In this document: piece by piece, positions 9,069 through 41,317 of the stretch
How the letters are laid out: each line of letters opens with the position of its first letter
Position numbering within the stretch: position 1 is the stretch's first letter
Assembly (NCBI GenBank): GCA_040219515.1
Contig: JAVJSI010000010.1
Coordinates: 158,557-222,556, forward strand
Length of the DNA stretch: 64,000 bases
Source: Acidimicrobiales bacterium
GTDB taxonomy: Bacteria > Actinomycetota > Acidimicrobiia > Acidimicrobiales > Aldehydirespiratoraceae
Direction of reading: 5' to 3'
Program-made: the position numbers and the translations under genes
Notes under the pieces: generated by a model
Seen by the model: the letters and a program-made list of their open reading frames with translations, nothing else
Database searches by the model: none
What the model was told of the DNA's origin: nothing

Positions 9069-9095
9069 GCGGGCTCGGTCATGCGGCCGCCGTGC

Positions 9096-14639: not shown

Positions 14640-14653
14640 CGAGGAACCCGCCG

Positions 14654-26825: not shown

Positions 26826-27446
26826 TTACCAGCCGGAGCCCTCTGAGGTGCCGATCATCGCTTCTCCGTCGACGCGGCGGACCCAACAATGGATCCCGCG
26901 ATAGCGCGCCGCGTCGTCCTCGAAGTTCTCCCGGTTGGGGATGATCACACCGATGTCGAGCTCGGACGTCTCGTAGTCGGTGCCCACCCACGGTACGAAT
27001 TCGCGGTAGCAGGAACGCACTGCGAAGTTCCGAATGGTCTCGTCGCCCGGATAGGGCGTCGGATGGCCGGCGGGGTAGTCGAGGATCGCGTACACCTGGA
27101 GATGGTGTGGTTCGTCACAGGGCAGCCTCGTGGTGATCGTCACCGGCTGGCCGTCGCGACGGTCCTCGATCTGGTCGAAGCAGTCGCGCACGGCGAGGCT
27201 GTACTGGTTGATCGGTTCACCCGGAATCTCGGTGGGGTCGAGGGGCGCCACCTCGGTCGTCGTCGTGGCGGCGTCGTCGGACGATCCGCCGTCCTCGTCC
27301 GTGCCGTCGGCCTCGAGATCGGCCCCGTCGGAACCGTCGACGGACGGGCTCTCGGCCGCAGGCGAATCAGTGCAGGCGACGAGGACCGAGCCGACGACGA
27401 GGAGCAGCATCATGGTCGCAGCGAGTGCGGCGAGACGATGGTTCAC
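26826..27446 (-). CDS. Lipoprotein, septum-formation family-like
   Basis: Lipobox LVAC after a signal peptide. The Cys-containing C-terminal domain (…VRDCFDQ…LPCDEPHHLQVY…RSCYREF…GIHCW…) resembles PF13845. Confidence 0.55.
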   Translation of the reverse strand: MNHRLAALAATMMLLLVVGSVLVACTDSPAAESPSVDGSDGADLEADGTDEDGGSSDDAATTTTEVAPLDPTEIPGEPINQYSLAVRDCFDQIEDRRDGQPVTITTRLPCDEPHHLQVYAILDYPAGHPTPYPGDETIRNFAVRSCYREFVPWVGTDYETSELDIGVIIPNRENFEDDAARYRGIHCWVRRVDGEAMIGTSEGSGW

Positions 27447-28583: not shown

Positions 28584-28662
28584 GTGAGAAACCTGCACAT
28601 TGCCGAACCCATCGGCGGTGGCAGGAGCCATCTGAGGGCCATCGACGGATACCGTTTTCGAT

Positions 28663-29316
28663 GTGTCCATCATCCGGCTGCGTGCCGCAGTCGCCCTGAT
28701 CGGTCGCTTTCCTGCGCTGGCAGGCGTCGACCTCGAGGTCGGCGAGGGCGAAGTCGTGCTCGTCCAGGGGCCCAACGGCGCCGGCAAGTCCACCCTGCTG
28801 CGTCTCTGCGCGGGGCTGCTGCGTCTCGAATCCGGCGAGGGCACCGTGCTCGGCCACGACCTTGCGTCGGCCCGACCGGCGATCCGCCGTTCGGTCGGCC
28901 TGCTCGGCCACGACACCGCTCTCTACGACGACCTGACCGTGCGCGAGAACCTCGACTTCTGGGCCAAGGCGTCGCGGGTCGACCCGACTGCCGTGCGACC
29001 CGCCATGGATCGACTCGGCGTCGCCGAGCGACTCCACGATGTGGGTGTCGGTCTGCTCTCCGCCGGGCAGCGCCGCCGGGTCGCGCTCGCCGCCGTGGTG
29101 GTGCGGCGGCCGCAACTCTGGCTGCTCGACGAGCCGCACGCCGGTCTCGACCCGTCGGGTCGCGACCTGGTCGACGAGCTGGTGGCCGACGCCGCGTCGG
29201 CCGGCGCGACCGTGTTGCTCTCCTCGCACGAGGTGGATCGTACGCTCGATCTCGCGACTCGCCGGATCACCGTCGCCGGCGGCACGATCGCGGGGGATGT
29301 CACCTATGCTCGCTGA
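28663..29316 (+). CDS. ccmA: Heme exporter ATP-binding protein CcmA
   Basis: Walker A GPNGAGKST, signature LSAGQRRR and Walker B LWLLDEP. First gene of the ccm cluster. Confidence 0.85.
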   Translation: MSIIRLRAAVALIGRFPALAGVDLEVGEGEVVLVQGPNGAGKSTLLRLCAGLLRLESGEGTVLGHDLASARPAIRRSVGLLGHDTALYDDLTVRENLDFWAKASRVDPTAVRPAMDRLGVAERLHDVGVGLLSAGQRRRVALAAVVVRRPQLWLLDEPHAGLDPSGRDLVDELVADAASAGATVLLSSHEVDRTLDLATRRITVAGGTIAGDVTYAR

Positions 29317-29974
29317 CATCCGCCTGGTTGCGGCGAAGGATCTCCGGATCGAGTGGCGCTCACGCATCACGCTCTCACAGGTGCTGCCCTTCGCCCTGCT
29401 GGTTCTCGTGCTGTTCGGGTTCGCCCTCGACGCCAACCGGCCGGTGCTCGACGCGGCCACGAGCGGGCTCTACTGGATCACGGTGCTGTTCGTCGGACTG
29501 ATGTCGGTCCAGCGGGCCACGGCGATCGAGACCACCGACGGTGCCCGCCGGGCGCTGTTGCTGGCCGGCGTCGAACCGGCCGCCGTCTTTCTCGGCAAGG
29601 CGCTGGCCGTGGCCGTGCAGTTGCTGTTCGTGGAGGTCGTGCTCGTCGGCGGGGTGATCGTGCTGTTCGACGCCTCGGTGGAGTCGGTGCCGCTGTTGGC
29701 GGCCACCTGCGTGGTCGCGACGGTTGGGATCGCGGCGGCAGGTACGCTCCTGGGCGCACTGGTGGCCGGTGTTCGGGCGCGAGAGACGGTGTTGCCGATC
29801 CTCCTGCTCCCGGTGCTGGCGCCGGTGCTCATCGGTGCCACCCGGGCGTTTGACGACGCCCTCGGCACGGTCGCTGTGGATGGTTGGGCCTGGCTCGGCC
29901 TTCTCGCCGGGTTCGGCGCGATCAACATTGTCCTGGGAGCATTGGCCTACGGCGTGTTGCTCGAGGAGACCTGA
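29306..29974 (+). CDS. ccmB: Heme exporter membrane protein CcmB
   Basis: 222 aa with six hydrophobic helices. It overlaps ccmA by 11 nt, and its position between ccmA and ccmC is as expected. Confidence 0.8.
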   Translation: MLADIRLVAAKDLRIEWRSRITLSQVLPFALLVLVLFGFALDANRPVLDAATSGLYWITVLFVGLMSVQRATAIETTDGARRALLLAGVEPAAVFLGKALAVAVQLLFVEVVLVGGVIVLFDASVESVPLLAATCVVATVGIAAAGTLLGALVAGVRARETVLPILLLPVLAPVLIGATRAFDDALGTVAVDGWAWLGLLAGFGAINIVLGALAYGVLLEET

Positions 29975-29991
29975 GGGTCGAAGGAGACGAG

Positions 29992-30750
29992 ATGACACAG
30001 GAACTCCAACGCACCGGACCCCCGCACACGGGCAGTCGCACCACGCGCGTTCTCGGCATCGCGGTCATCGTCGGTCTTGCCGCCCTTTTCCTGCTCGGTT
30101 GGTTCGTGGCCCCCGAGGACGACGAACAGCAGGACGCCGTGCGCATGATCTTCGTCCACGTCCCGTCGGCCATTCTCACCTACGTCGCCTTTCTCACCAC
30201 CGCCGTCGGCTCGGTCATGTGGCTCCTGCGTCGCTCCGTCTGGTGGGACACCGTGGCCGGCGCGGCGGCGGAGATCGGCGTCCTCTTCTGCGGCCTCACG
30301 CTCTTCACCGGCTCGATCTGGGGCCGACCCACCTGGAACACCTACTGGGACTGGGGCGATGTGCGCCTCGTCACCACCCTGATCCTGTTCCTGATGATGA
30401 TCGGCTACCTGTCGGTGCGTTCGCTCGGTGGGCCCGAGACCGCCACGGCAACCCGCGCCGCGGTCGTCGGTGTGCTCGCTGCGGCACTCATGCCGATCAT
30501 CAACCGCTCGGTCGAATGGTGGGAGAACAACACGCTCCACCAGAAGTCGTCGCTCACCGACGGCAAGCTCGAGGACATGACGCTGTTCACCCTGGTGCTC
30601 GGTCTCGTCGTGTGGGGCCTGTTCTTCGCCTGGGCGGTGATCCACCGATTCCGGATCAGCTGGCTCGAACGCCAGCTCCGGGTGGCCGACCTCGACCGGG
30701 CGCTCGTCGAACGACGGGCCGAAGGCGAACAGATGGGAGCGGACGCATGA
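29992..30750 (+). CDS. ccmC: Heme-handling membrane protein CcmC
   Basis: Trp-rich WGxxWxWD-type motif (WGRPTWNTYWDWGD) and conserved His residues. AAGGAG lies 5 nt upstream of the ATG. Confidence 0.9.
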   Translation: MTQELQRTGPPHTGSRTTRVLGIAVIVGLAALFLLGWFVAPEDDEQQDAVRMIFVHVPSAILTYVAFLTTAVGSVMWLLRRSVWWDTVAGAAAEIGVLFCGLTLFTGSIWGRPTWNTYWDWGDVRLVTTLILFLMMIGYLSVRSLGGPETATATRAAVVGVLAAALMPIINRSVEWWENNTLHQKSSLTDGKLEDMTLFTLVLGLVVWGLFFAWAVIHRFRISWLERQLRVADLDRALVERRAEGEQMGADA

Positions 30751-30896
30751 CGCATCTCGGATATCTCCTCGTGGGTTGGGGCGTCACGATCGGTGTCGGC
30801 CTCGCCTACACCGTGAGCCTGCTGCAACGCGGTCGGCGGTTGTCGACCCGCGTGCCGGCCGATCGTCGCCGTTGGATGCAGGCCGACGAGACATGA
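30747..30896 (+). CDS. ccmD: CcmD-like small membrane protein
   Basis: 49 aa with one TM helix followed by a basic tail. ATGA overlaps at both ends. The call rests on position and topology only. Confidence 0.5.
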   Translation: MTHLGYLLVGWGVTIGVGLAYTVSLLQRGRRLSTRVPADRRRWMQADET

Positions 30897-31438
30897 CCGA
30901 CACTCTCGCCCCACAGGCGCCTCGCGCCGGTCGCAGCCGCCAGCGGCGCTGGATTCCCGCGCTCATCGGCATCGCCGTGGTCATCGCCGTGATCGTGCTG
31001 GTCTGGCGCCTGTTCACCGGGGCGCTCTTCTTCTACAACGCCGACGAAGCGGTGGCGGAGCGGGCCGAACTGGGCGATGACCGCTTCACCCTCCAGGGCA
31101 CGCCGGTCGGGTGCACCATCACCTCCGGCAACCAGGGGGAGGATGTCGTCACCGCGTTCACCGTCGCCTTCGATGGCGTGCTCGTCGATGTCGTTCATCG
31201 CGGTGAACCCGCGGAACTGTTCGAGGGCGGCACGCCGGTCGTTCTCGACGGCAGTTGGGTCGAGGGATCTCCCGGGGTCGACGGCTTCGCGGGGTTGGCC
31301 GCCGACGGTTGGTACTACTCGTCGGATCGCATGCGGGTGAAGCACGACGAGGACTACATCAACGACGAGGGCTATGACGAGCGCCTCGAGGAAAGCAACA
31401 TCCAGGGGGAAGCCGCGGCTGAGGTCTGCTCGGTATGA
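30893..31438 (+). CDS. ccmE: Heme chaperone CcmE
   Basis: N-terminal anchor, an OB-fold-like body and an HxxxY heme-binding motif (KHDEDY). ATGA overlaps on both sides. Confidence 0.8.
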   Translation: MTDTLAPQAPRAGRSRQRRWIPALIGIAVVIAVIVLVWRLFTGALFFYNADEAVAERAELGDDRFTLQGTPVGCTITSGNQGEDVVTAFTVAFDGVLVDVVHRGEPAELFEGGTPVVLDGSWVEGSPGVDGFAGLAADGWYYSSDRMRVKHDEDYINDEGYDERLEESNIQGEAAAEVCSV

Positions 31439-33441
31439 GCAGCGCCGCCTTCGGTGCGGTCGTCGTCGCGCTCGGCGCCGCTGCGTCGTTGACCGGCATC
31501 GGTGTCGTCACCCTCGGTCTGTTCGGTCGACGACCGAACTGGTGGCGTGAGGCCCGTGCGCTCGTCTGGGTGATGGCCGCGATGGCTGCGCTCGCCATCA
31601 TCTGGATGGAACGGGCGCTGATCAACCGTGACTTCACGATCGAGTTCGTTGCCAACCACGGCTCGCGTCAGACCTCGTCGATCTTCAACGTGGCCACCCT
31701 GTGGTCCGCGCTGGAGGGCTCGATCCTGCTCTGGACCTTCGTCCTCACCGGCTATGTCGCGGCCGTGGTCGTGAAGTTCCGCGACAAGCGGGACGACCCG
31801 ATGATGGCGTGGGTGCTGCTCACCCTGTTCGTGGTCTGCGCCTTCTTCTTCCTGCTGATGGTGGGGCCGTCGAACCCGTTCCGCTCCTTCGATCCGCCGC
31901 CGGGCTACGACGGCCCGGGCCCCAACCCGCTGCTCCAGAGCCACATACTGATGGCGTTCCATCCGCCGATCCTCTACCTCGGCTTCGTCGGCTTCACCGT
32001 GCCGTTCGCATTCGCGATCGGTGCCCTGGTCACCGGGCGGGTGGGGGAGGGGTGGCTGCTCGCCACCCGGCGCTGGACCGTCATCGCCTGGGGTTTCCTC
32101 ACCCTCGGCATCGTCCTCGGTGCGTGGTGGAGCTACGAGACGCTCGGTTGGGGTGGCTACTGGGCGTGGGACCCGGTCGAGAACGCGTCGTTCCTGCCGT
32201 GGCTCACCGGTACCGCCTTCATCCATTCGGTGATGGTGCAGGAGCGGCGTGGCATGTTGCGAGTGTGGAACCTGTCGCTGGTGGTCGCCACCTTCGCCCT
32301 CACGATCCTGGGCACCTTCCTCACCCGGTCCGGTGTGGTCGAGTCGGTCCACGCATTCTCGGAATCCTCCATCGGCCCGGCGTTGCTCGGCTTCTTCACG
32401 CTGATCGTGGTGGTCTCGCTCGGCCTCATCGCGTGGAGGGGCGATCAGTTGCGATCCCCGGGGCGGATCGATTCGCCGATCTCGCGTGAGGGCGCGTTCC
32501 TGGCCAACAACGTCCTGTTCGCCGCGTTCGCGTTCGTCGTTCTGCTGGGCACCGTCTTCCCGCTCGTCGTCGAAGCGGTCAACGACGATCGCATCTCGGT
32601 GGGCAACCCCTACTTCGACACCATGACGATGCCGATCGGGTTCACCCTGTTGTTCCTCATGGCCGTGGCCCCGGTGCTGCCCTGGCGCAAGGCGTCGTCG
32701 GGCGTGCTCGGCGACCGGCTCATCTGGCCGGCCTGGATCGGTGCCGGCGCAATGGTGCTGTCGGTGCTCGTCGGTGCTCGCGGGTGGGCGCCCACGCTCG
32801 CCTTCGGTCTCGGCGGATTCGCCGGGGGCGCGGCGCTGCGTCAGGTGGTACTGGCCACCCGGCGACAGGGTTGGCGCGGGCTCATCGGCCGCACCAACGG
32901 CGGCATGGTGGTCCACTTCGGTGTGGTGCTGATCGCCGTGGCGTTCGCGGCCAGCAACGCGTATGTCCGTCAGGACACCTTCCTGCTCGAACCCGGCCAG
33001 ACCGCCACGTTCGCCGGCCATGAACTGACGTACGAGGGCGACGACTTCCGGGAGTTCCCAAACCGCACCGAGCGGCGGGTGGCCATCCGCATCGACGGAG
33101 GGCAGGTGTACGAACCCGGCATCGCCAACTACCCGTTCGCGGGCCGCAACATCGGCATCGCGTCCGTGCGATCGACCCTGTTCGACGATGTTGCGCTCTC
33201 GGTCGACAGCTTCCCCGACGACAGCGACGCCGTCGTCATCCGGGTGACGGTGCAGCCGCTGATCGTGTGGTTGTGGATCGGCGGCCTCATCATGGCCGTC
33301 GGCACCCTGCTCGCCGTCGTGCCGGGCAAACGCCGCAATCCGACCATGCCGGTGAGCGCCCCGCTGCCCGACCCTCACGACGACCCTGACGACGACCCTG
33401 ACGACGACCCTGCCCAACGACCGCTCGAGGAGTTGGTGTGA
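31435..33441 (+). CDS. ccmF: Cytochrome c heme lyase subunit CcmF
   Basis: 668 aa and polytopic. Trp-rich motif WGGYWAWDPVENASF. Acidic DDPD-repeat C-terminus. Confidence 0.9.
   Translation: MSSAAFGAVVVALGAAASLTGIGVVTLGLFGRRPNWWREARALVWVMAAMAALAIIWMERALINRDFTIEFVANHGSRQTSSIFNVATLWSALEGSILLWTFVLTGYVAAVVVKFRDKRDDPMMAWVLLTLFVVCAFFFLLMVGPSNPFRSFDPPPGYDGPGPNPLLQSHILMAFHPPILYLGFVGFTVPFAFAIGALVTGRVGEGWLLATRRWTVIAWGFLTLGIVLGAWWSYETLGWGGYWAWDPVENASFLPWLTGTAFIHSVMVQERRGMLRVWNLSLVVATFALTILGTFLTRSGVVESVHAFSESSIGPALLGFFTLIVVVSLGLIAWRGDQLRSPGRIDSPISREGAFLANNVLFAAFAFVVLLGTVFPLVVEAVNDDRISVGNPYFDTMTMPIGFTLLFLMAVAPVLPWRKASSGVLGDRLIWPAWIGAGAMVLSVLVGARGWAPTLAFGLGGFAGGAALRQVVLATRRQGWRGLIGRTNGGMVVHFGVVLIAVAFAASNAYVRQDTFLLEPGQTATFAGHELTYEGDDFREFPNRTERRVAIRIDGGQVYEPGIANYPFAGRNIGIASVRSTLFDDVALSVDSFPDDSDAVVIRVTVQPLIVWLWIGGLIMAVGTLLAVVPGKRRNPTMPVSAPLPDPHDDPDDDPDDDPAQRPLEELV
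33370..33411. repeat. 12-nt tandem repeat (GACCCT[C/G]ACGAC) x3.5 encoding HDDP/DDDP repeats
   Basis: Read directly at the 3' end of ccmF. Confidence 0.8.
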
Positions 33442-34028
33442 GCGAGTCGACGACCCCCGAAGTCCCCCGCCGTGCGGTCTGGATCGTGGCCCCCGTTGCG
33501 CTGGTGATGGTGGTGTTCATCGCCCTGCTCGCCACCCGTGACTCGGGCGGTCCCGCGTTCGACAGTTTCGATCTCGAGGGCGAGGTGGCGCCGGCCATCG
33601 TGGGTACGACGATCGACGGCGACACGTTCGACCTCGACGATTACCGCGGCGGCTTCGTGATCGTGAACTTCTTCCAGACCACGTGCATCCCGTGCGTGCA
33701 GGAACATCCGGAACTCGTGTCGTTCCAGGAGGCCTACGGACCGTCGGGATTCGCCACCATCGTCTCGGTCGCCTTCGACGACCGTCCGGAGAACATCCGG
33801 GATTTCTTCACCGAGTACGGCGGTGACTGGCCGATCATCGCCACCGACACCGCATCGATCGCGGTGGACTACGGCGTGCCGCTGGTACCCGAGTCGGTGC
33901 TGATCGCCCCCGACGGTGAGGTCATCACCAAGCTCCTCGGTGGCATCCGGCGCGCCGAGCTCGAGGCGGTCATCCAGTCCTGGCAGGAAGAACAAACCGT
34001 CCTGGCCGAGCCGGAGGGCGACTCGTGA
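33438..34028 (+). CDS. ccmG: Thioredoxin-fold thiol:disulfide oxidoreductase CcmG/DsbE (TlpA/ResA-like)
   Basis: N-terminal anchor and CxxC motif (TTCIPCVQE). GTGA overlap with ccmF. Confidence 0.8.
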   Translation: MSESTTPEVPRRAVWIVAPVALVMVVFIALLATRDSGGPAFDSFDLEGEVAPAIVGTTIDGDTFDLDDYRGGFVIVNFFQTTCIPCVQEHPELVSFQEAYGPSGFATIVSVAFDDRPENIRDFFTEYGGDWPIIATDTASIAVDYGVPLVPESVLIAPDGEVITKLLGGIRRAELEAVIQSWQEEQTVLAEPEGDS

Positions 34029-34489
34029 CCCGCCGCCTCGCACTCTGGATCGCGATGGCCGTCGTCGCCACGTCGGCTCTTCTCTACGCCGCCATCGACG
34101 AGGGCGAGCCGCGCACCGACGCCGATCGGGCCTACGCGGTGTCGAAGACCATCGGTTGTCCCGTGTGCGACGGCCAGTCGGTGGCCGAGTCCAACGCCAC
34201 GGTGGCCAAGAACATCCGGATCTCGATCGCCACGTGGATCGACGAGGGCCGCAGCGACGAGTTCATCCGCGCCGAACTTCGCGCCGCCTTCGGCGACGAC
34301 GTCGACTACACGCCGTCGGCCGATGGCATCACGAGTCTCGTCTGGATCCTCCCGGTGGTGTTCGGGGCCGGTGCCCTGACCGGTCTGGCGATCGTCTTCC
34401 GCCGCTGGAAGCAGGAGGGCGATCTCGAGGCGAGCGAGGCCGACACCGCGCTGGTCGAGGCGGCCCGCGCCGCCTTGTCCGATGAATGA
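34025..34489 (+). CDS. ccmH: Cytochrome c maturation protein CcmH
   Basis: CPVCDGQSVAESNA matches the LRCxxCQxQS-type CcmH motif. It has a C-terminal TM helix. GTGA overlap upstream. Confidence 0.8.
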   Translation: MTRRLALWIAMAVVATSALLYAAIDEGEPRTDADRAYAVSKTIGCPVCDGQSVAESNATVAKNIRISIATWIDEGRSDEFIRAELRAAFGDDVDYTPSADGITSLVWILPVVFGAGALTGLAIVFRRWKQEGDLEASEADTALVEAARAALSDE

Positions 34490-35613
34490 GTTGTCCGATG
34501 GCTGACCCCGCCGACTCGCACGCCGAGGAGCTGAGCTTCGTCCTGGCCTCTCTGGACGATCTCGAGGCCGAGCGTGCGGCCGGCGATCTCGACGATCACG
34601 ACTACGCGGCGCTCAAGTCGGACTACACGACCCGCGCGGCCCGGTTGCTGCGAGCCGCCGAGGACAGTCGCCCGTCCGAGCCCGCGGCCGCGAGATCGTG
34701 GCGGCGAGTCGCGATGTGGACGGCGCTGGTGGTGATCGTGGCCGGACTGGCCGGCGTGCTGCTGGCCGACTACACGGGCAGCCGAGGCGACGGCACGGTC
34801 ACCGGCGACATCCGCGAGACGGTACGCCAGCGCAAGTTCGAGGCCGGCCAGCTGCTTGGCACCGACCCCGAACGGGCGCTCGAGATCTACGACGGCGTCC
34901 TCGAGGACGCCCCCTCCGATGCCGAGGCCCTGGCCTACCGCGGCTGGCTCACCCGGCTGGGTGGCGACCCGGAGGCGGCGCAGCCGTTCGTCGAGGATGC
35001 CATCCTGGCCGACCCCGATTACCCCGATGCCCGGGTGTTCGGCGCGGCGATCGCACTCGACCTCGACGACATCGAGGCTGCGGAAGCCCACATCGACGCA
35101 CTCGACGAGATCGATGTGCCACCGTTCATCGATCAGCTCGTACGCGGCCAGCTCCTGCGGGCGCGGCTCGTCGAGGTTCGTCTGCTGACCGGCGAGCCCG
35201 ATGCGTTCGCCGCGTCGGGTCTCAGGGTGGCCGAGGTCGCCCGCGCCGCCGACGATCTTCTCGACGCCGGCGAGGTCACGCGGGGACTGGCTTTGCACGA
35301 TGTGCTCATCAACGAGGCCCGAGACGACATCGACGTGCTCACCGAGGTCGGCTGGTTCCTGGCCCGCCTGGCGCTGGGCGGTGGCGACGAGGTCGCGTCC
35401 TCCCTGGACGCGGCGGACGACCTGTTGACCGAGGCGCTGGAAACCGATCCGGCTCACCCGCCCGCCCTCGTGTATCGCGCATTCGTGCGCTTCTGGTTGG
35501 CCGACGATGCGGGCGCCCGAGCCGACCTCGCGGCCTTCGACGCGGTCGATGCCGGCCGCGATGATCTCGAACTCCTGCTGACCGAGACCGGGTTGCGCGA
35601 CGAGTTGTCCTGA
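34486..35613 (+). CDS. ccmI: CcmI-like TPR protein
   Basis: A TM helix is followed by an Ala/Asp/Leu-rich helical repeat region. ATGA overlap with ccmH. Function is inferred from position and architecture. Confidence 0.5.
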   Translation: MSCPMADPADSHAEELSFVLASLDDLEAERAAGDLDDHDYAALKSDYTTRAARLLRAAEDSRPSEPAAARSWRRVAMWTALVVIVAGLAGVLLADYTGSRGDGTVTGDIRETVRQRKFEAGQLLGTDPERALEIYDGVLEDAPSDAEALAYRGWLTRLGGDPEAAQPFVEDAILADPDYPDARVFGAAIALDLDDIEAAEAHIDALDEIDVPPFIDQLVRGQLLRARLVEVRLLTGEPDAFAASGLRVAEVARAADDLLDAGEVTRGLALHDVLINEARDDIDVLTEVGWFLARLALGGGDEVASSLDAADDLLTEALETDPAHPPALVYRAFVRFWLADDAGARADLAAFDAVDAGRDDLELLLTETGLRDELS

Positions 35614-35637
35614 GCCCGGCGCTCGGTGATCGCTGGT

Positions 35638-35649
35638 TACTCGCGAGTA
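35638..35649. promoter_or_regulatory. Perfect 12-bp palindrome TACTCGCGAGTA in the ccmI-monooxygenase spacer
   Basis: Read directly. It lies about 30-50 nt upstream of the candidate start codons at 35681 and 35702. Confidence 0.25.
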
Positions 35650-35680
35650 GGAATCTGGCGTTTGATGTGCCAACCGGCAC

Positions 35681-37858
35681 ATGGTTCGCAATACTGACGT
35701 CATGGCACGCCTGCGCAAGCTCGATCTCGGCCGTCTCTCCATCCTGGCGGTGATACTTCTGGGCACGGTGGCCATGGTGACCAAGGACCAGTGGGACTGG
35801 GTCTTCGCGAGCGACGAGGCCGAGGAGCAGGGAGTGTCCGCCGAGACCATCGACGACGTCGACGACGCCACCGAACGGCTCTATCGCGTGGCGCCGAACA
35901 ACGGTTCGCAGGTGAGCTACGCCGTCGAGGAACGGCTGGCGGGGAGTGAAGGCCAGGCCGTGGGCGTCACCACCGTGGTGGCCGGCGACATCGTCATCAA
36001 CACCGAGGACCCGACCCAGAGCCGGATCGGCGAGGTCGTGGTCAATGTCGAGATGTTCGACTCCGACTCCAACCTGCGCGACAAGCGGCTGCGCCACGAC
36101 TTCCTCGAGTCCAACCACTTCCCGTTCGCCCGGTTCGAGACCACGTCGATCGACGGGCTCGACGCCGAGTTCGCCGACGGCTCCACGTACGACATCGCCC
36201 TCACCGGCGACCTCACCGTCAAGGAGACGACGAGCGAGGAGACCTTCAGCGGTACGGTCACCGTCGACGGCGACCAGCTCACCGCCGACGTGTCGGCCGT
36301 CGTGCTCAGCTCCACCTACGGGGTCGGTCCGATCAACGTCGCCCGCCTCGCCCACACTGCCGACGAGGTCACGCTCTCGTTCTCGCTGGTCGCCGACCGG
36401 GTCGAGCTCGGCACCGACGCCGATCCGGATCTCGACACCGACGTGCCCGAGTTCGCGGTGGCCGGTGGCGCGTTCGCCGCCGAAGTCCAGCCGATCCTCG
36501 AACAGAACTGCGTGTCGTGCCACACCACGGGCGGGCCGGGATGGGAGACCCTCGCCTTCGACACCGCCGCCGATGCCGCCGAGATCGCCGACGACATCGC
36601 ACTCGTCACCGAGATTCGATTCATGCCCCCGTGGCTGCCGGGCGGCGACAGCCCCGAGTTCGAACACTCCTGGGAGCTGACCGACGACGAGATCGCCACG
36701 CTCCGCACCTGGGCCGACGACGGTGGCGGACTCGACGTCCCCCCGGACACGCCACTGGTGGCCGGCGATCCGGCGATCATCCCGATCGAGGAGGACCAGA
36801 TCATCGATCCTCGTGACGGCAAGTATCCGCCACTGCTCGACGATGCGGGCGAACCGGTGCTCAAGGACGACTATCGCTGCCAGGTCCACGAGGTCGCCGA
36901 TCCCGAGGGCGACGGCACCTGGATCAAGGGCTATGAGTTCCGTCCCGACGTCACGACGGTCGTGCATCACTCCATCATCTACCTGGCGCCGCCCGAAGCC
37001 CTCGACGAGATCGCCGTGAAGTCAGCCGAGGACGACCGCCCCGGCTGGACCTGTTTCGGCACCTCGAACCTGCGCACCGATGGTGTGCGCAACATGGGTG
37101 GGTGGGCGCCCGGTCAGGCCCCCACCACGTACCCCGACGGTTACGGGCTCTTCATCCCGCCCGGCTACGTCGTGATCAACCAGACCCACTACCACTTCGA
37201 CCACGCGGCCGAGGCCGACGGATCGCAGATCATCCTCGACGAGGCGACCGACCAGCAGATGGTGGGCATCACCTCCGTCGCCGGATCGAGCTACCTCACC
37301 CCGGCAGAAGTGCCGTGCACACCGGAGGAAGAGGCGATCGCGGCCGAACGTGAGGCGACGATCGATGGCTACCGCAACCTGTGCATCCGCGAGAACGTGC
37401 TCGAGGAGATCGGCGAGAAGTACGACGTCTTCGCCACGTTCATCCCCAACGCCCTGATTCTCGGTTGTGGCGGCACCGTCGACGACTACGACGACCTCGA
37501 TGGCTCGATCGGCCACAGCTCCTGCGACATGCAGGCCCGCAACCCGGGCACGATCTACACCGTGCTCGGTCACATGCACGAGTTCGGCGACGCCTACAAG
37601 ATGACGCTCAACCCCGACACGCCCGAGGAGATGGTGCTGCTCGACATCCCGAACTGGGACTTCGAATGGCAGCTCAACTACGACCTGGTCGAGGACGTCC
37701 GCATCGACCGCTCCGACGTGATCCGCTTCGAGTGCTGGTGGGATCGCACCCGCATGTACATGCCCGAACCCCGCTACATCACCTGGAACGAGGGCACCGT
37801 CGACGAGATGTGCTTCTCGTCCGTCTCCGTCCTCCCCGACAAACCCGACGCCGAGTAA
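35681..37858 (+). CDS. Membrane-anchored fusion protein: YceI-like domain, mono-heme cytochrome c domain (CxxCH), and a PHM/DBH-like type II copper monooxygenase
   Basis: TM helix LSILAVILLGTVAMV. YceI block …DSNLRDKRLRHDFLESNHFPFARFETTS…. PSCyt-like heme c block …VQPILEQNCVSCH…IRFMPPW…. Cu sites VHHSIIY and THYHF (CuH-like) plus GHMHEFG and VDEMCF (CuM-like). An alternative ATG lies at 35702. Confidence 0.75.
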   Translation: MVRNTDVMARLRKLDLGRLSILAVILLGTVAMVTKDQWDWVFASDEAEEQGVSAETIDDVDDATERLYRVAPNNGSQVSYAVEERLAGSEGQAVGVTTVVAGDIVINTEDPTQSRIGEVVVNVEMFDSDSNLRDKRLRHDFLESNHFPFARFETTSIDGLDAEFADGSTYDIALTGDLTVKETTSEETFSGTVTVDGDQLTADVSAVVLSSTYGVGPINVARLAHTADEVTLSFSLVADRVELGTDADPDLDTDVPEFAVAGGAFAAEVQPILEQNCVSCHTTGGPGWETLAFDTAADAAEIADDIALVTEIRFMPPWLPGGDSPEFEHSWELTDDEIATLRTWADDGGGLDVPPDTPLVAGDPAIIPIEEDQIIDPRDGKYPPLLDDAGEPVLKDDYRCQVHEVADPEGDGTWIKGYEFRPDVTTVVHHSIIYLAPPEALDEIAVKSAEDDRPGWTCFGTSNLRTDGVRNMGGWAPGQAPTTYPDGYGLFIPPGYVVINQTHYHFDHAAEADGSQIILDEATDQQMVGITSVAGSSYLTPAEVPCTPEEEAIAAEREATIDGYRNLCIRENVLEEIGEKYDVFATFIPNALILGCGGTVDDYDDLDGSIGHSSCDMQARNPGTIYTVLGHMHEFGDAYKMTLNPDTPEEMVLLDIPNWDFEWQLNYDLVEDVRIDRSDVIRFECWWDRTRMYMPEPRYITWNEGTVDEMCFSSVSVLPDKPDAE

Positions 37859-37860
37859 CC

Positions 37861-37957
37861 GTCCCTGCGGTGTCAGACACCTGTCCCTGCGGTGTCAGAC
37901 ACCTGTCCCTGCCGGAAGTTGGGACGGGTTGGGACGGGGGTCTGACCCCGGTGTCCC
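37861..37957. repeat. Cluster of three REP-like palindromic units, same family as 2589-2654
   Basis: gtccctgcggtgtcagacacct occurs twice in tandem (37861-37904). An inverted canonical unit, gggacgggggtctgaccccggtgtccc, follows at 37931-37957. The cluster fills a convergent spacer. Confidence 0.6.
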
Positions 37958-37960
37958 AAC

Positions 37961-38926
37961 TCAGGGGAGGCGGTGGTGGGCGTCGCGCAAGAAGGCGAGC
38001 GCGTGGGCGACAGGGTCGTCGGCGGTCCGCAGTGCGGCGTAGGACATCGAGGCGCCGTTGAAATCGGTCTCGTTCCAGAACGGGTCGCTGCGGTCGACGT
38101 CGCCCCAGGCGCCGATGTAGAGGTAGGGCTCGGCGTGGCCGGCGTCGCCGGGCGATGCGCCATACGTCGCCCGCCCGCCGGTATCGGCGTCACCCATGGC
38201 GATCGCCGGGTCGAAGTGCCCGGGCCACAGCTGGGTGCGATCCACGTCGACGGCACCGTCCGTGAGCCGGAGTTCCTCGAGCACCGACCACGCGAAGCCG
38301 AACCATGCGGCGAGAAACTCGCCCGTGGCGTCCGTCGCGCCGAGATCGGTGTCGGGGTCGCCGAGCGGGGGAGAGTCGTGTTCCGCGGCGGTGGTGCCCG
38401 GCTCGAACCCGAGGAAGTCGCCTGCGGCCCGCAGCGTGGTGATGGCCGTGCTGTCGACCGTGTTGCCTCGCTGCCAGACCAACACGCCGTGCTCGACGCG
38501 TACCTGTTCGTCGTCGCCGAAGAACGGCGTACCGAACCCACCCCGCGTGAAACGGAGCCCGAACTTGGTGTTCGCCAATCGTCGGGCTTCGGCGACGACG
38601 CCGTAGGCGAGTCGGTGGTAGCCGTCGCGAGCGGCCGGGTATCCCGCAGGAACCGGTGGCAACGGGGGCCGGTTCGCCAGCCAGCGCTCGGCCGCCCACC
38701 CAGCGAGCTCCGGCCGCTGATCGACGATCTCGGCCCAGGTGATGTCGCCCCCGCTCGTCGGGGTGACCACGCGGGCGCCGCCGCCGTCACCGGCGAGCGC
38801 CGGGTCGTCGGCGAAGAACTCGGGATCGGTGTCGGCCGGGCGACCGGGCTCCAGCGTCCGTGCGACGAACCCGTCACCGAGCAACGCGTTCGCTTCGGCG
38901 GTGGGGCTGTGGGCGGTGATCGACAT
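37961..38926 (-). CDS. Conserved hypothetical protein
   Basis: 321 aa with high GC3 and a plausible composition. I recognise no motif. Confidence 0.55.
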   Translation of the reverse strand: MSITAHSPTAEANALLGDGFVARTLEPGRPADTDPEFFADDPALAGDGGGARVVTPTSGGDITWAEIVDQRPELAGWAAERWLANRPPLPPVPAGYPAARDGYHRLAYGVVAEARRLANTKFGLRFTRGGFGTPFFGDDEQVRVEHGVLVWQRGNTVDSTAITTLRAAGDFLGFEPGTTAAEHDSPPLGDPDTDLGATDATGEFLAAWFGFAWSVLEELRLTDGAVDVDRTQLWPGHFDPAIAMGDADTGGRATYGASPGDAGHAEPYLYIGAWGDVDRSDPFWNETDFNGASMSYAALRTADDPVAHALAFLRDAHHRLP

Positions 38927-38998: not shown

Positions 38999-40171
38999 AT
39001 GCCATCGTCTCGCCTCACCGCTGCGTTCGTCGGACTGGTCCTCGTCACGACCGCGTGCGGCGGTGACCCGGTTGTGGAGGTCGACGACGCGACGTTCGAG
39101 GTGGAGCAGATCGCGTCGACCGCACGCGAGGACGTGCCCTCGGGACTCGACGACGCACTCCAGCCCGGGCTACCCGAGCCGCTGGTCGACGTCGAGCGGA
39201 TCGTGTCGGGCGGGCCCCCACCCGATGGGATCCCGCCGATCGACGAGCCGAGCTTCCAGCCCGCCGCGTCGGTGGACTGGCTCTCGCCCACCGAGGCCGT
39301 CATCGCGGTCGAGATCGGTGGAGAGGCCCGGGCCTACCCGGTCCAGATTCTGATCTGGCACGAGCTCGTCAACGACACGATCGGCGACACGCCGATCACC
39401 GTCTCGTACTGCCCGCTGTGCAATTCCGCGCTGGCGTACGACCGGCGACTCGGCGATCGCATCCTCGACTTCGGGACATCGGGCCGACTCTTCAACTCGT
39501 CGTTGGTCATGTACGACCGTCAGACCGAGAGCCTCTGGACCCATTTCGACGGCCGTGCCGTCGCCGGCGCGCTCACTGGTGCCGAGCTCGACACGTACCC
39601 GATCTCCACGGTGTCATGGGAGGACTTCCGGACGGCCCACCCGGACTCGCCGGTGCTCAGCCGCGACACCGGGTTCAGTCGTGACTACGGGCGGAATCCC
39701 TACGAGGGGTACGACGACGCCTCGACCCAGCCGTTCCTCTTCGACGGTGAGCTCGATGACCGTCTCGACGCCAAGACCCGTGTGGTGGTGGTGCGAGACG
39801 ACGCCGGGCCCGCGGTCGTGCTCGAGCTCTCGACGCTGCTCGCCGACGGAGTCATCGAGTTCGAGGCGCACGATCGATCCCTTGTCGCGGTGCTCGACCC
39901 GGGCACGGCCAGCCCACTCGACGGCAGTGAGGTCGCCGCCGGCTATGACCAGGGTGCGGTCGGCGTGTTCGAGAACGAGCTCGACGGTGAGCGACTCGAG
40001 CTCGTCCGCGGCGACGAGGGTTTCCTCGACAGGCAGAGCGGCAGGACGTTCGACGTCTTCGGGAGGCAGGTCGGCGCGGGTCCCGCTCGTCTCGCGCCGG
40101 TCGAGCATCTCGACACTTTCTGGTTCGCGATCGCCGCGTTCGACCGCGACGCCGAGGTTCTCGCCGGCTGA
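38999..40171 (+). CDS. DUF3179-family lipoprotein
   Basis: Lipobox VTTAC. …DGIPPIDEPSF…AYPVQILIWHELVND…VSYCPLCNS…SGRLFNSSLVMYD… matches my recollection of DUF3179. Confidence 0.7.
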   Translation: MPSSRLTAAFVGLVLVTTACGGDPVVEVDDATFEVEQIASTAREDVPSGLDDALQPGLPEPLVDVERIVSGGPPPDGIPPIDEPSFQPAASVDWLSPTEAVIAVEIGGEARAYPVQILIWHELVNDTIGDTPITVSYCPLCNSALAYDRRLGDRILDFGTSGRLFNSSLVMYDRQTESLWTHFDGRAVAGALTGAELDTYPISTVSWEDFRTAHPDSPVLSRDTGFSRDYGRNPYEGYDDASTQPFLFDGELDDRLDAKTRVVVVRDDAGPAVVLELSTLLADGVIEFEAHDRSLVAVLDPGTASPLDGSEVAAGYDQGAVGVFENELDGERLELVRGDEGFLDRQSGRTFDVFGRQVGAGPARLAPVEHLDTFWFAIAAFDRDAEVLAG

Positions 40172-40174
40172 CGC

Positions 40175-40678
40175 TCAGGGTGCGGCGGTGTAGCGACCCC
40201 GGGTGATATCGCGGCCCCGCGTCTCGAGGGTCCAGATACTGCCCTTCTCGCAGCCCCGAGGACCGAGAACGGACATGCCCTCGCGCAGCAGCCGGTTCAC
40301 CACCTCGGGGATCAGGTCGCCGTGGCTGCAGAGGATCAGGTCGTCCTCGGTATCCGCTTCGGCCCGTAGGAGCTCGAGCAGGTCGTTCGGCCGAGCCCCT
40401 TCGGTGAGTTCGGCCCGGGTCTCGACCTCGAGACCGTGGGCCGCGGCCGTTGCCGATACGGTGTCGACACAGCGCGTCGCACGCGACGACCAGACACCCC
40501 GCAGGCGGCAGTCGGCGAAGTGCGCGGCGATGGAGATCGCCTGCCGCCTTCCCCGATCGTCGAGCGGCCGCTCGAGGTCGTCGAGATTCCAACGACTGCG
40601 ATCGAGCGCCGCGGCATGACGGACGAGGTAGAGGGTCACCGGATCCGGAGTGTAGGGCGGCGGTGCGACCCGACGCAT
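40175..40678 (-). CDS. Histidine phosphatase family protein (SixA-like)
   Basis: LYLVRHAAA (RHG-type motif) and a later SHGD. 167 aa from the ATG at 40678. Confidence 0.7.
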   Translation of the reverse strand: MRRVAPPPYTPDPVTLYLVRHAAALDRSRWNLDDLERPLDDRGRRQAISIAAHFADCRLRGVWSSRATRCVDTVSATAAAHGLEVETRAELTEGARPNDLLELLRAEADTEDDLILCSHGDLIPEVVNRLLREGMSVLGPRGCEKGSIWTLETRGRDITRGRYTAAP

Positions 40679-40693
40679 GCTCGGGCAGACTCG

Positions 40694-41317
40694 ATGCCGA
40701 TGGGGTTCTTCGATCGAAACCGCAAGGCGCTGGAGGAGGCCGGCATCGACCCGGCCCGACTCCCGCCCGGCCAGTATCACACCGACCGGTTTCCGGTGCT
40801 CCAGGTCGGGTCACCCGCGACCTACGCCGAGGACCTGTCCGACTGGGATCTCCGGGTATTCGGTCGTGTCGCCGACGAGCTCGTGTTCACGTTCGCCGAG
40901 CTGACCGCGCTGGCCCCGGTCGAGGTGGTCACGGACATCCATTGCGTGACGAAGTGGTCGAAGTTCGACACCCGGTGGACGGGGGTGCGCATGCGTGACC
41001 TCTACGACATCGCCGGCGTCGATCAGTACGCAACCCATGTCGTGATGCACGGCGAGCACGGCTACTCGGCCAATCTTCCGATCGAGCACACGCTCGGCGA
41101 CGACGCACTGGTCACATGGGCGTACGACGGCCAACCGATCGAGGTCGCGCACGGGTACCCCGTGCGCACCCTCGTGCCCCACCTCTACTTCTGGAAGTCG
41201 GTGAAGTGGCTGCGGGGCATCGAGCTGGTCGTCGGGGATCGGCCCGGCTTCTGGGAGCAGAACGGGTACCACGACCTGGGTGACCCGTTCGCCGAGCAGC
41301 GCTTTCGGGGCGATTGA
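40694..41317 (+). CDS. Sulfite-oxidase-fold molybdopterin oxidoreductase (small YedY/MsrP-like type)
   Basis: …DIHCVTKWSKFDTRWTGV… (Mo-ligand Cys context), …GYPVRTLVPHLYFWKSVKWL… and …GFWEQNGYH…. Confidence 0.75.
   Translation: MPMGFFDRNRKALEEAGIDPARLPPGQYHTDRFPVLQVGSPATYAEDLSDWDLRVFGRVADELVFTFAELTALAPVEVVTDIHCVTKWSKFDTRWTGVRMRDLYDIAGVDQYATHVVMHGEHGYSANLPIEHTLGDDALVTWAYDGQPIEVAHGYPVRTLVPHLYFWKSVKWLRGIELVVGDRPGFWEQNGYHDLGDPFAEQRFRGD

Follow-up and report, generated by a model that had tools for sequence, protein, structure and literature searches.

An open reading frame at 35681-37858 (+) of the window (the whole stretch of DNA analysed, 64,000 nucleotides from the genome of an uncultured Acidimicrobiales bacterium) encodes a predicted membrane-anchored protein in which a YceI barrel and a haem c domain precede a two-domain core homologous to the copper monooxygenases PHM and DBH. 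The reading that we favour, with moderate confidence, is of an anchored two-copper monooxygenase fed by its fused haem c; less firmly, we see the YceI barrel as a quinol link. The protein belongs to a large bacterial family without prior characterisation. A total of 2,502 clusters at 50% identity matched the combination of cytochrome c and copper core at E<=1e-10, with members in the Acidimicrobiia, Gaiellales, Chloroflexota and Gemmatimonadota. The family was common in the first three of these groups, in material from sea water, soil, sludge and sponges. YceI was present in about a third of the members sampled. A survey of how often the fusion occurs found it not to be rare, the family comprising thousands of sequence clusters. 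Database entries label its members "YceI family" or "hypothetical", and these annotations may hide an abundant cell-surface oxidative activity. The original prediction knew of no characterised enzyme with such an architecture, and literature searches likewise turned up neither a characterised enzyme of this type nor a paper that treats PHM-like enzymes joined to cytochrome c in bacteria.

Reading frame and domain order

The features of the gene and the evidence used to place them are as follows.

35681-37858, + strand: whole gene, anchor plus YceI plus cytochrome c plus PHM/DBH-like core (ORF, >300 full-length homologues)
35726-35782, + strand: N-terminal transmembrane anchor, aa ~16-34 (hydrophobicity, predicted helix)
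35900-36394, + strand: YceI-like lipid/polyisoprenoid-binding beta-barrel, aa 74-238 (Pfam, PDB profiles, Foldseek)
36395-36466, + strand: acidic linker, variable in length, joining YceI to cytochrome c, aa 239-262 (alignment A1, low pLDDT)
36467-36730, + strand: mono-haem class I cytochrome c domain, aa ~263-350 (motif conservation, Cytochrome_CBB3)
36509-36523, + strand: CVSCH haem motif, C277-V-S-C280-H281 (invariant residues)
36623-36634, + strand: distal Met motif MPPW, M315-P-P-W (invariant residues)
36860-37300, + strand: CuH domain, N-terminal beta-sandwich, aa ~394-540 (PHM alignments, conservation, Foldseek)
36965-36970, + strand: CuH ligands H429/H430 (aligned to PHM H107/H108)
37187-37189, + strand: CuH ligand H503 (aligned to PHM H172)
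37313-37498, + strand: family-specific helical insert with conserved C546, C568, C596 and C615 (model, alignment A2)
37499-37834, + strand: CuM domain, C-terminal beta-sandwich, aa ~607-718 (DBH and PHM alignments, conservation)
37571-37579, + strand: CuM ligands H631-M-H633 (aligned to the DBH HxH, LHTH)
37808-37810, + strand: CuM ligand M710 in DEMC (aligned to PHM M314)

A check of the ORFs in the 64-kb window found the 725 codons present as a single intact gene with the four parts originally described, although the probable true start shifts to the ATG at 35702 (M8, MARLRK...), giving 718 aa. Relatives also begin at M8, as does the database's own gene call of 718 aa (P0001). The original prediction had itself raised the possibility that separate genes were joined by a frameshift. 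A sequencing or assembly error that fused two or three genes, or a pseudogene in decay, would fit the one weak point of the window protein, its sub-threshold Pfam scores. Against this, the full four-part architecture recurs in >300 proteins from independent assemblies, complete chromosomes among them, the GC content by codon position (0.66/0.43/0.90) is of the coding type, with coding-type GC3 along the entire ORF, and all catalytic residues are intact. On the recurrent architecture, the complete-chromosome examples and the intact residues an artefact or pseudogene was rejected, and we give it a negligible probability.

A scan with domain HMMs was only partly successful on the window protein itself: YceI (PF04264) scored above its cut-off (E=1.3e-18, 68.2 bits vs 23.7), but the cytochrome and both copper domains scored below theirs. 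These were recovered after all through family profiles, the Pfam matches of relatives and the conservation of ligands.

The predicted N-terminal anchor was confirmed as one hydrophobic segment. Residues ~16-34 form the only strongly hydrophobic 19-residue stretch of the protein, and the AlphaFold model (pLDDT 75.5 for the whole protein) has a helix at 16-33. No lipobox was found at this anchor, and a hydrophobic N-terminal segment, for export or anchoring, was present in 52/52 relatives. The location had been described as periplasmic; the host carries a sortase, from which a monoderm envelope is presumed for this member of the Acidimicrobiales, and the location is better read as the external side of the cytoplasmic membrane.

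For the YceI-like block there were PDB profile matches to YceI (1y0g), BcnA (5ixh) and TT1927b (1wub). Foldseek gave target TM values of 0.64-0.77 to 5ixh, 1wub, 3q34 and 2x32, the last being X158 of S. degradans, on which the block superposes (E=2e-6). The Pfam score above threshold and the eight-stranded, lipocalin-like barrel fold shared with BcnA, TT1927b and X158 assign it to the YceI family, as had been proposed; binding of a lipid or quinone is putative. In alignment A1 of close relatives the linker that follows (aa 239-262) is alone among internal regions in taking up insertions, some reaching ~45 residues, and its pLDDT is low in the AlphaFold model. Only 19/52 sampled relatives have a YceI domain. 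One locus, L055, has a split form, with the enzyme followed by a separate anchored YceI gene and then by a gene for the copper chaperone CopC; it was the only case of a separate YceI gene near a YceI-less enzyme, none being found within 8 kb in 42 loci. Given this distribution, the variable linker and the separate gene at L055, YceI is, as judged from sequence comparison, an accessory domain.

Haem domain and copper core

The haem-ligand residues of CVSCH and MPPW were invariant in 21 close relatives, and C277, C280, H281, M315, P317 and W318 were invariant across 52 distant sequences at 23-44% identity. The original prediction saw in the MPP a Met ligand of the PSCyt type. The distal Met is indeed conserved, but the PSCyt model was unmatched and a domain of this type was rejected; Cytochrome_CBB3 matched instead, below its cut-off on the window protein (E=3e-4, 21.5 bits vs 27) and at E<=0.01 in 41/52 relatives. 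In the AlphaFold model helices flank the haem motif, with a pLDDT of only 38-66 in the cytochrome domain. The CxxCH motif, the distal Met and the helical domain are those of a class I c-type cytochrome, for which a covalent haem is predicted, and the N-terminal anchor and the ccm genes directly upstream provide for its export and maturation. The motif is, as claimed, the sole CxxCH of the window: the other match, CGRCH at 14834, was rejected because its frame has the codon-position GC of non-coding DNA. Exactly one CxxCH was found in 50/52 members, and a CxxCH with a distal Met lies directly N-terminal to the copper core in 52/52 diverse members. Unlike the variable YceI linker, the stretch between cytochrome and core has conserved residues, W344 and G348. 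The haem domain is obligatorily coupled to the core in all 52 of these members, and this coupling makes the built-in electron donor that was originally suggested the natural reading, with electrons presumably flowing from haem to copper.

The copper core was compared with PHM using a numbering taken from the printed profile alignments (PDB chain index + 44). In addition to its ligands the CuH domain has Y398 (=PHM Y79), Q501 (=Q170) and the pair C400/C458 (=C81-C126), and the CuM domain has Q664 (=PHM Q272) and the pair C685/C711 (=C293-C315). The CuM ligands of the animal enzymes are H242, H244 and M314 in PHM, with H412, H414 and M487 as their DBH counterparts. The HH/HxH and HxH/EMC spacing noted at the outset yielded all six ligands, but conservation of H505, the second histidine of the CuH HxH, is limited to the close clade and H503 is therefore taken as the ligand. 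Across the 52 sequences H430 and H503 did not vary and H429 was at least 90% conserved; the CuM ligands showed no variation in alignment A4 and a conservation of at least 90% in A2. All six copper ligands, the counterparts of Y79, Q170 and Q272 and the two PHM disulfides were kept, fully or to at least 90%, down to 23% identity.

On the window protein both copper models fell below their gathering thresholds (PF01082, 16.6 bits vs 30; PF03712, 13.2 vs 23). They were matched at E<=0.01 by 39/52 and 46/52 relatives respectively, with best E values of 9e-10 and 1e-11. PHM was matched by family profiles at E=3e-9 and E=6e-10; for DBH the values were E=2e-8 with the whole profile and E=2e-4 with that of the C-domain across HxH and EMC. 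In the Foldseek search with the AlphaFold model ranks 1-28 were all PHM (E 1e-11 to 5e-9, target TM 0.54-0.67). The core is, on these comparisons, a divergent PHM/DBH subfamily poorly caught by current Pfam models. Two-copper binding and O2-dependent C-H hydroxylation are predicted from homology.

PHM (the PAM core; 1PHM, 1OPM, 3MLL) is the nearest known structure. The two proteins share the two-domain beta-sandwich (Foldseek E=1e-11, target TM ~0.6), the CuH His3 and CuM His2Met sets, Y79/Q170/Q272, the disulfides C81-C126 and C293-C315 and a location outside the cytoplasm, yet they are only ~14% identical. Unlike PHM, the window protein has N-terminal haem c and YceI fusions, a bacterial anchor and a Cys-rich helical insert, and ascorbate is an unlikely donor. 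DBH, tyramine beta-monooxygenase and MOXD1 (4ZEL) have the same core, and DBH likewise has an extra beta-rich module ahead of it; in that group the module is DOMON, whereas here it is YceI plus cytochrome c, with no dimerisation domain. The insert (~60 residues) separates the two copper domains in sequence and is skipped in the PHM alignments. It has helices at 548-560, 570-581, 583-595 and 601-605 in the AlphaFold model and four cysteines that are at least 90% conserved (alignment A2, 52 sequences), and from its place in the sequence order it is possibly a substrate lid.

The substrate of PHM is held by anchors that the window protein does not share. R240 is the carboxylate anchor of PHM (PMC12164859). 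The peptide anchors N316 and Y318 are replaced by F712 and S714 in the alignment of DEMC-F-S-S with DEMC-N-L-Y. The position of R240 is presumably taken by L629, which we place only by its register with the HxH motif. Since the carboxylate and backbone anchors are thus replaced, the enzyme is predicted not to amidate peptides and to act on a substrate other than a glycine-extended peptide.

A core of this kind might instead use haem electrons to reduce a small molecule (O2, superoxide, nitrite or NO), or run in reverse, oxidising a substrate and passing its electrons to the respiratory chain. In cytochrome c-fused copper nitrite reductases and in subunit II of caa3-type oxidases a class I haem c is tethered as a dedicated one-electron donor, a design that is common where a soluble periplasmic carrier is lacking. 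The two mononuclear coppers and tethered haem of the window protein resemble these enzymes, PHM crystal structures exist with nitrite, azide and CO at copper, and the genes around the family are of housekeeping type, with no catabolic clusters. The resemblance is one of design, however: the tethered enzymes have cupredoxin folds and reduce nitrite or O2 rather than hydroxylate C-H bonds. The window protein keeps the full PHM catalytic set (the Y79, Q170 and Q272 equivalents and the CuM Met), which fits C-H hydroxylation, as does the conserved insert if it is a lid, and no PHM-fold enzyme is known to be a small-molecule reductase. Either activity is therefore considered improbable.

Electron supply and the YceI barrel

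The favoured monooxygenase would be tethered to the cytoplasmic membrane by one N-terminal helix and face outwards, with CuH (H429, H430, H503) and CuM (H631, H633, M710) as two uncoupled copper sites. At CuM, O2 would be activated and a substrate C-H bond hydroxylated at a cost of two electrons per turnover; the electrons would most likely arrive singly from the His/Met haem c fused ahead of CuH. Outside the cytoplasm the haem would be bound covalently to the protein, a step presumably carried out by the System I Ccm of the adjoining upstream genes. With lower confidence, the YceI barrel, on its flexible acidic tether near the membrane, may bind an isoprenoid lipid. The favoured lipid, by analogy with Cbp2D/E, is (mena)quinol, which would make the respiratory quinol pool the ultimate two-electron source. 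Animal PHM and DBH draw their electrons from ascorbate, and the haem most likely replaces it as donor to CuH. The term "self-sufficient", applied earlier to this enzyme, is overstated, because a one-electron haem c itself needs an upstream reductant.

PHM, DBH and TBM are textbook animal enzymes in which the path of electrons to CuH, and then over ~11 Å to CuM, is debated. A bacterial branch with an attached haem donor offers a natural ascorbate-free system in which the delivery of electrons could be set off and monitored by optical means, in a protein that could be produced in bacteria.

The closest precedent for the N-terminal half comes from Cbp2D/E of Cellvibrio japonicus and X158 of Saccharophagus degradans, in which a YceI-like domain that binds polyisoprenoids and quinones and a small cytochrome c are combined in a secreted protein, read as serving a copper monooxygenase (PMC8981238). 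Ubiquinone-8 is a ligand of the YceI-like X158, a domain found together with cytochrome c domains in Cbp2D, and the X183 haem domain of Cbp2D reduces copper LPMOs (PMC8981238). There the LPMO, of unrelated fold and with a single-copper histidine brace, is a separate protein, and the electron-transfer proteins include carbohydrate-binding modules, whereas the window protein carries its copper enzyme as a fused part with the PHM fold. The profile matches at E<=1 included no PDB entry under the name CjX183 or Cbp2D, and Pfam found no carbohydrate-binding module in the window protein. Membership of the Cbp2D/E type (CBM2 with X158 and X183/X132, the LPMO in trans) was rejected; the common ground is limited to the YceI-like domain and the overall logic.

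What the barrel does can be read in two ways. In one, the protein is a quinol-driven extracytoplasmic monooxygenase in which YceI picks up menaquinol, the haem splits its electrons and the copper pair hydroxylates a substrate of the envelope or the environment; in this full form the proposal is tentative. YceI is absent from two thirds of the sampled relatives, so that quinol binding by YceI cannot account for haem reduction in the family as a whole, and YceI is not known to catalyse redox reactions. If the quinol-driven reading is true, it would reveal a previously unknown link from the respiratory quinol pool to extracellular C-H oxidation and give a first functional assignment to thousands of bacterial, ascorbate-independent PHM/DBH homologues. 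Should YceI prove to be a quinol port, this would also throw light on what YceI proteins and the Cbp2D/E partners of LPMOs do, long a puzzle.

In the other, the same haem-driven enzyme uses YceI to extract a membrane lipid as substrate for CuM, which may be of the polyprenyl, quinone, hopanoid, carotenoid or fatty-amide type, and a different respiratory cytochrome reduces the haem. The original prediction also had YceI present a hydrophobic substrate, and this stands as one option, while the Cbp2D/E precedent points to quinone and electron input. YceI proteins bind polyisoprenoids and other lipids (descriptions of 1wub, 2x32 and 5ixh), the barrel is tethered flexibly beside the membrane anchor and L629, F712 and S714 in place of the polar PHM anchors suggest a more hydrophobic pocket. 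YceI-less relatives must also obtain electrons without YceI, so the barrel need not be the input. The same relatives nevertheless share the active-site residues and would need another delivery or another substrate, and no lipid-pathway genes are consistently adjacent. The only studied proteins with YceI-like and cytochrome c domains have been read as electron-transfer proteins (PMC8981238). Lipid extraction is accordingly regarded as a doubtful though serious candidate.

The ccm operon and genomic neighbourhood

The genes and spacers next to the enzyme gene are listed below.

28663-35613, + strand: System I cytochrome c maturation operon (Pfam matches, order in relatives)
28663-29316, + strand: ccmA (Pfam)
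within 29039-29974, + strand: ccmB (Pfam)
within 29884-30750, + strand: ccmC (Pfam)
within 30776-31438, + strand: ccmE (Pfam)
31435-33441, + strand: ccmF (Pfam)
33438-34028, + strand: ccmG-like redoxin (Pfam)
34025-34489, + strand: ccmH (Pfam)
34486-35613, + strand: TPR CcmI-like gene (Pfam)
35614-35701, + strand: spacer from the CcmI-like gene to the enzyme gene (promoter/terminator scan, folding)
37859-37960, no strand: strongly structured spacer from the enzyme gene to a convergent gene (folding)

The System I genes expected upstream on the same strand were found as ccmA, B, C, E, F, G and H and the TPR CcmI-like gene. Two relatives (L002 and L004) have an identical ccm order, with a ccmD-sized gene (49-50 aa) between ccmC and ccmE. 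The gap of 67 nt given earlier is right to the ATG at 35681 but becomes 88 nt to the likelier ATG at 35702. No promoter or terminator match was found inside the spacer 35614-35701, which folds no better than shuffles (z=+0.4). With no terminator-like element in this spacer, co-transcription of the ccm genes and the enzyme gene is plausible.

The survey also asked whether the fusion neighbours ccm genes. It does in 11 related loci, down to ~55% identity and within one Acidimicrobiales clade, but not in Aldehydirespirator loci (~60% identity) or any distant relative. Its last place in the ccm operon, with ccmI immediately before it in the same orientation and no terminator between, is kept in those 11 loci and would be explained if the protein assisted in cytochrome c maturation or in the handling of haem and copper. 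The protein is itself a Ccm client, however, which is enough to account for the linkage, no known Ccm step needs a two-copper monooxygenase and the linkage is missing from the Aldehydirespirator and distant loci; we hold a maturation role to be very improbable.

All ORFs of 84 related loci were clustered in a survey of neighbours. Recurrent neighbours were limited to the ccm genes of the one clade, ABC-type ORFs, clade-specific synteny and short-chain dehydrogenases. Outside the close clade the gene sits among unrelated housekeeping genes; neighbours in Gaiellales and Ilumatobacter were methylmalonyl-CoA mutase, a GT4 glycosyltransferase, an aldo-keto reductase, enolase and a molybdenum hydroxylase, with no theme. 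A conserved partner or pathway was rejected on the clustering of the 84 loci, and the neighbourhoods outside the close clade offer no pointer to substrate or partner. L055 was the only locus among those examined with CopC or any other copper chaperone near the gene. ABC-type ORFs lay near the gene at varying distance in 29 loci. Short-chain dehydrogenases adjoin it in ~5 clades with a mutual identity of only ~30%, a weak hint and not a link.

Downstream, the spacer 37859-37960 had a minimum free energy of -58.2 kcal/mol (z=-3.5, 0/200 shuffles equally stable) and contained a 22-nt tandem repeat at 37863-37906 that occurs only there. It is followed by a convergent ORF at 37961-38926 (-) with coding-type GC3, and the transcription unit probably ends at the spacer. 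A DUF3179 gene and a gene for a 321-aa protein also lie downstream and are conserved in close relatives only.

Domain order and the copper core

The enzyme is encoded on the + strand of the window (G+C content 68%) by a 725-codon ORF at 35681-37858, whose codon-position G+C of 0.66/0.43/0.90 is of coding type. The second ATG (M8, nt 35702) is the start in close relatives and in the database gene call P0001 (718 aa); residue numbers used here are those of the 725-codon ORF. A Pfam scan of the window protein recovered four domains in the order of the original prediction, three of them below cut-off.

Pfam matches in the window protein
aa 74-238, YceI: E 1.3e-18, 68.2 bits, cut-off 23.7, passes
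aa 266-320, Cytochrome_CBB3: E 3e-4, 21.5 bits, cut-off 27, below
aa 394-504, Cu2_monooxygen: E 9e-3, 16.6 bits, cut-off 30, below
aa 624-712, Cu2_monoox_C: E 0.06, 13.2 bits, cut-off 23, below

The sub-threshold matches to Cytochrome_CBB3, Cu2_monooxygen and Cu2_monoox_C were unconvincing alone and were therefore tested using relatives. A search of 5.8 billion proteins gave 323 matches to the window protein, and the best 120 of these were nearly all ~700-790 aa long and aligned over 91-99% of the query; they stem from many independent assemblies, and those that bear a name are called only "YceI family protein". In 21 relatives (58-79% identity) C277, C280, H281 and M315-P-P-W were invariant, as were H429, H430, H503, H505, H631, H633 and M710 and eight further Cys. 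The possibility that the ORF is an artefact, two genes fused by a frameshift, is refuted by these full-length homologues from many assemblies and by the invariance of the key residues, and has practically no chance of being correct.

An exhaustive search of aa 255-725 against 1.84 billion cluster representatives found 5,696 proteins at E<=1e-3 and 367 at E<=1e-30. The fusion is no rarity, as the cytochrome c plus copper core matches 2,502 proteins at E<=1e-10. Many of the matches were 430-550 aa long and aligned from the cytochrome domain to the C-terminus, that is, cytochrome c and copper core without YceI. Other copper enzymes are already known to be built with a fused haem c domain; for the PHM fold, no description of such a fusion was found in the literature searched.

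A diverse alignment (A2) comprised the window protein and 51 representatives 23-44% identical to it. C277, C280, H281, M315, P317, W318, H430 and H503 were invariant in A2, and H429, Q501, H631, H633, M710, Y398, R399 and eight Cys were at least 90% conserved. H505 had been predicted to be part of the CuH ligand motif; although invariant in the 21 close relatives it was not conserved in A2, and so H503 is taken as the third CuH ligand. When the 52 members were scanned singly against Pfam (E<=0.01), 46 matched Cu2_monoox_C, 41 Cytochrome_CBB3, 39 Cu2_monooxygen and 19 YceI, so that the predicted haem c domain is upheld both by these matches and by the invariant CxxCH and distal Met.

Comparison with PDB sequences gave PHM (E=3.2e-9) and human DBH (E=2.2e-8) for the whole A2 profile, PHM (E=6e-10) for a catalytic-core profile, and DBH (E=2e-4) for a C-domain profile, in which HxH aligned to LHTH and EMC to EEMC. 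PHM numbering is the chain index + 44 in these alignments and can be checked on C81, C126, C293, C315 and M314.

Residues of the enzyme aligned with PHM
Y398: PHM Y79, conserved catalytic-core residue
C400 and C458: PHM C81 and C126, disulfide in PHM
H429 and H430: PHM H107 and H108, CuH ligands in PHM
Q501: PHM Q170, conserved catalytic-core residue
H503: PHM H172, CuH ligand in PHM
Q664: PHM Q272, conserved catalytic-core residue
C685 and C711: PHM C293 and C315, disulfide in PHM
M710: PHM M314, CuM ligand in PHM

An AlphaFold2 model built on an alignment of close relatives (A1) had a mean pLDDT of 75.5 and a pTM of 0.56, with both copper domains mostly >80 and the cytochrome domain at 38-66, a low value that is expected without haem. 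A Foldseek search of the PDB with this model placed PHM entries at ranks 1-28 (E 1e-11 to 5e-9, target TM 0.54-0.67), followed by the YceI-type structures BcnA 5ixh, TT1927b 1wub, 3q34 and S. degradans X158 2x32. Profile, fold and ligand evidence thus combine to support the copper-monooxygenase assignment and bear out the predicted likeness to the CuH and CuM sites of PHM and DBH.

The substrate side of the cleft differs from that of PHM, in which N316 and Y318 are among the residues that hold the peptide substrate. PHM R240 forms a salt bridge to the glycine carboxylate of the peptide (PMC12164859). Profile alignments pair the PHM motif DEMC-N-L-Y with DEMC-F712-S-S714 of the enzyme. From its register with the HxH motif, L629 is presumably the equivalent of R240. 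Since the peptide anchors are replaced, the enzyme is predicted not to be peptide-amidating, and its substrate pocket looks more hydrophobic than that of PHM. The position of PHM F80, beside the Y79 equivalent, is taken by R399, which is nearly invariant in the family. About 60 residues between the copper domains (aa 545-606), with four helices in the model and four conserved Cys, are not covered by the PHM alignments and may form a lid over the cleft. By fold and ligands the enzyme is a member of the PHM/DBH superfamily; the failed PHM test of substrate anchors and the scores below Pfam thresholds place it in a divergent bacterial subfamily.

Genomic surroundings and the ccm operon

Genes around the enzyme
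26826-27446, - strand: Septum_form
27465-28916, - strand: sortase
28663-29316, + strand: ccmA
within 29039-29974, + strand: ccmB
within 29884-30750, + strand: ccmC
within 30776-31438, + strand: ccmE
31435-33441, + strand: ccmF
33438-34028, + strand: ccmG-like redoxin
34025-34489, + strand: ccmH
34486-35613, + strand: TPR protein, CcmI-like
35681-37858, + strand: the enzyme
37961-38926, - strand: convergent 321-aa gene, no Pfam match, coding-type GC3
~39100-40171, + strand: DUF3179
40436-41317, + strand: molybdopterin oxidoreductase, sulfite-oxidase or YedY type (Oxidored_molyb E=6.5e-40)

The System I operon of this Acidimicrobiales genome (ccmA-C, ccmE-H and the CcmI-like gene; 28663-35613) adjoins the sortase gene. 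Actinomycetota usually use System II, as far as is known. No terminator-like element was found in the spacer between the CcmI-like gene and the enzyme, and the predicted fold of this spacer is no more stable than that of shuffled sequences (z=+0.4). The spacer to the convergent gene (37859-37960) reaches -58.2 kcal/mol (z=-3.5, with 0/200 shuffles as stable) and is probably a bidirectional terminator lacking a U-tract, or possibly a protein-binding site; it contains an exact 22-nt tandem repeat, CCCTGCGGTGTCAGACACCTGT x2, at 37863-37906. A terminator-free spacer upstream and a strongly structured one downstream fit co-transcription of the enzyme with the ccm genes.

The enzyme lies directly downstream of ccm in the window, as predicted, but a general link did not hold. 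Among related loci, ccm genes were found 5' of the enzyme in L002-L004, L008-L012 and L018-L020, all of at least 55% identity, and were not found there in the Aldehydirespirator loci L013-L016 (~60% identity) or in more distant loci. Adjacency in the window might suggest a Ccm accessory factor, a reading that is contradicted by this lineage-limited synteny and is very improbable; the simplest reading is that in a single lineage the gene of a Ccm client has settled next to the operon. As originally noted, the window has no other such motif: within its 64 kb, no CxxCH apart from CVSCH lies in a credible coding frame. A second (CGRCH, 14834) lies in a 492-codon frame (14315-15790, +) that is not coding, its third-position GC being 0.44-0.76 and its first ~0.9.

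The 321-aa gene and DUF3179 form a divergent pair that recurs near the enzyme in the close relatives L002 and L008; L010 and L012 likewise have the 321-aa gene near it. The DUF3179 ORF is open from 37973, but GC3 shows its long 5' extension to be non-coding. Homologues of the Oxidored_molyb gene, 2.5 kb downstream of the enzyme, occur near it only in L035 and L040. In ~5 clades (L022, L023, L033, L034, L053, L065, L063, L068, L071-L075) a short-chain dehydrogenase/reductase (SDR) gene is directly beside the enzyme gene. Between clades these SDRs share only ~30% identity and are therefore not orthologues; their adjacency may be fortuitous or may reflect a repeated pairing of hydroxylation with subsequent oxidation.

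Predicted mechanism and the YceI domain

In sequence and in fold the enzyme shows all the features of a two-copper (uncoupled) monooxygenase of PHM/DBH type, and it is unlikely to be a small-molecule reductase or to run with reversed electron flow. An obligatory mono-haem c domain lies directly N-terminal to CuH, the protein is exported or membrane-anchored, and a maturation system is encoded close by. Judged from sequence, it would work like PHM and DBH: the haem would pass two electrons per turnover to CuH, replacing ascorbate, and CuM would activate O2 and hydroxylate a non-peptide, probably hydrophobic substrate. The haem would still require a reductant, so that the description of the enzyme as self-sufficient was not sustained.

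Cbp2D/E join c-type cytochrome domains to a YceI-like domain, X158, that binds ubiquinone-8; copper LPMOs are reduced by their haem domain X183 (PMC8981238). These proteins are a published parallel for YceI with cytochrome c as electron input, and a quinol bound by YceI would supply exactly two electrons. By this analogy a role of YceI as quinol port is slightly favoured over the presentation of substrate originally proposed. Neither role would be essential to the core chemistry, because most relatives work without YceI. The prediction for this enzyme stands on good grounds and lends itself to testing, and it concerns a large family that has not been studied.

Family architecture, topology and hosts

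A genome scan confirmed at least 585 candidate stretches, out of 600 listed. YceI was fused in 44 of 87 loci, and 42 had no YceI within 8 kb. The one locus with a split architecture, L055 from an Ilumatobacteraceae MAG (7683-10707, one strand), encodes in succession a cytochrome c plus copper enzyme of lipoprotein type, a separate membrane-anchored YceI protein (E=7e-19) and the copper chaperone CopC (E=4e-12). The occurrence of fused and split forms ties YceI functionally to the enzyme, and a CopC gene next door is in keeping with a copper protein. Within the proteins of A1, large insertions occur nowhere but in the YceI-cytochrome linker, and W344 and G348, in the cytochrome-to-core segment, are conserved across A2, which suggests a tightly coupled cytochrome and copper core with YceI on a flexible tether.

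The lone hydrophobic segment of the enzyme is at aa ~16-34, no lipobox was found in the window protein, and a pI of 4.05 makes its mature form strongly acidic. All 52 A2 members have an N-terminal hydrophobic segment. A lipobox-like motif is present in 15 of them, most without YceI; where YceI is fused, the N-terminus is a plain membrane helix, whereas many YceI-less members have the lipobox-like motif instead, and the two forms are therefore tethered differently to the membrane. From the sortase gene just upstream of ccmA we infer a monoderm envelope, and the enzyme should thus be on the outer face of the cytoplasmic membrane. In such organisms c-type cytochrome domains are typically fused or anchored, not soluble.

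Among the matches listed, the closest genomes were uncultured Acidimicrobiales (79% and 73% identity), and the hosts included Acidimicrobiia (Acidimicrobiales, Microthrixaceae, Ilumatobacter, Iamiaceae and Aldehydirespirator), Gaiellales, Chloroflexota (Anaerolineae, Thermoflexus and Phototrophicaceae) and Gemmatimonadota. Members are named "YceI family protein" or "hypothetical protein" in the databases.
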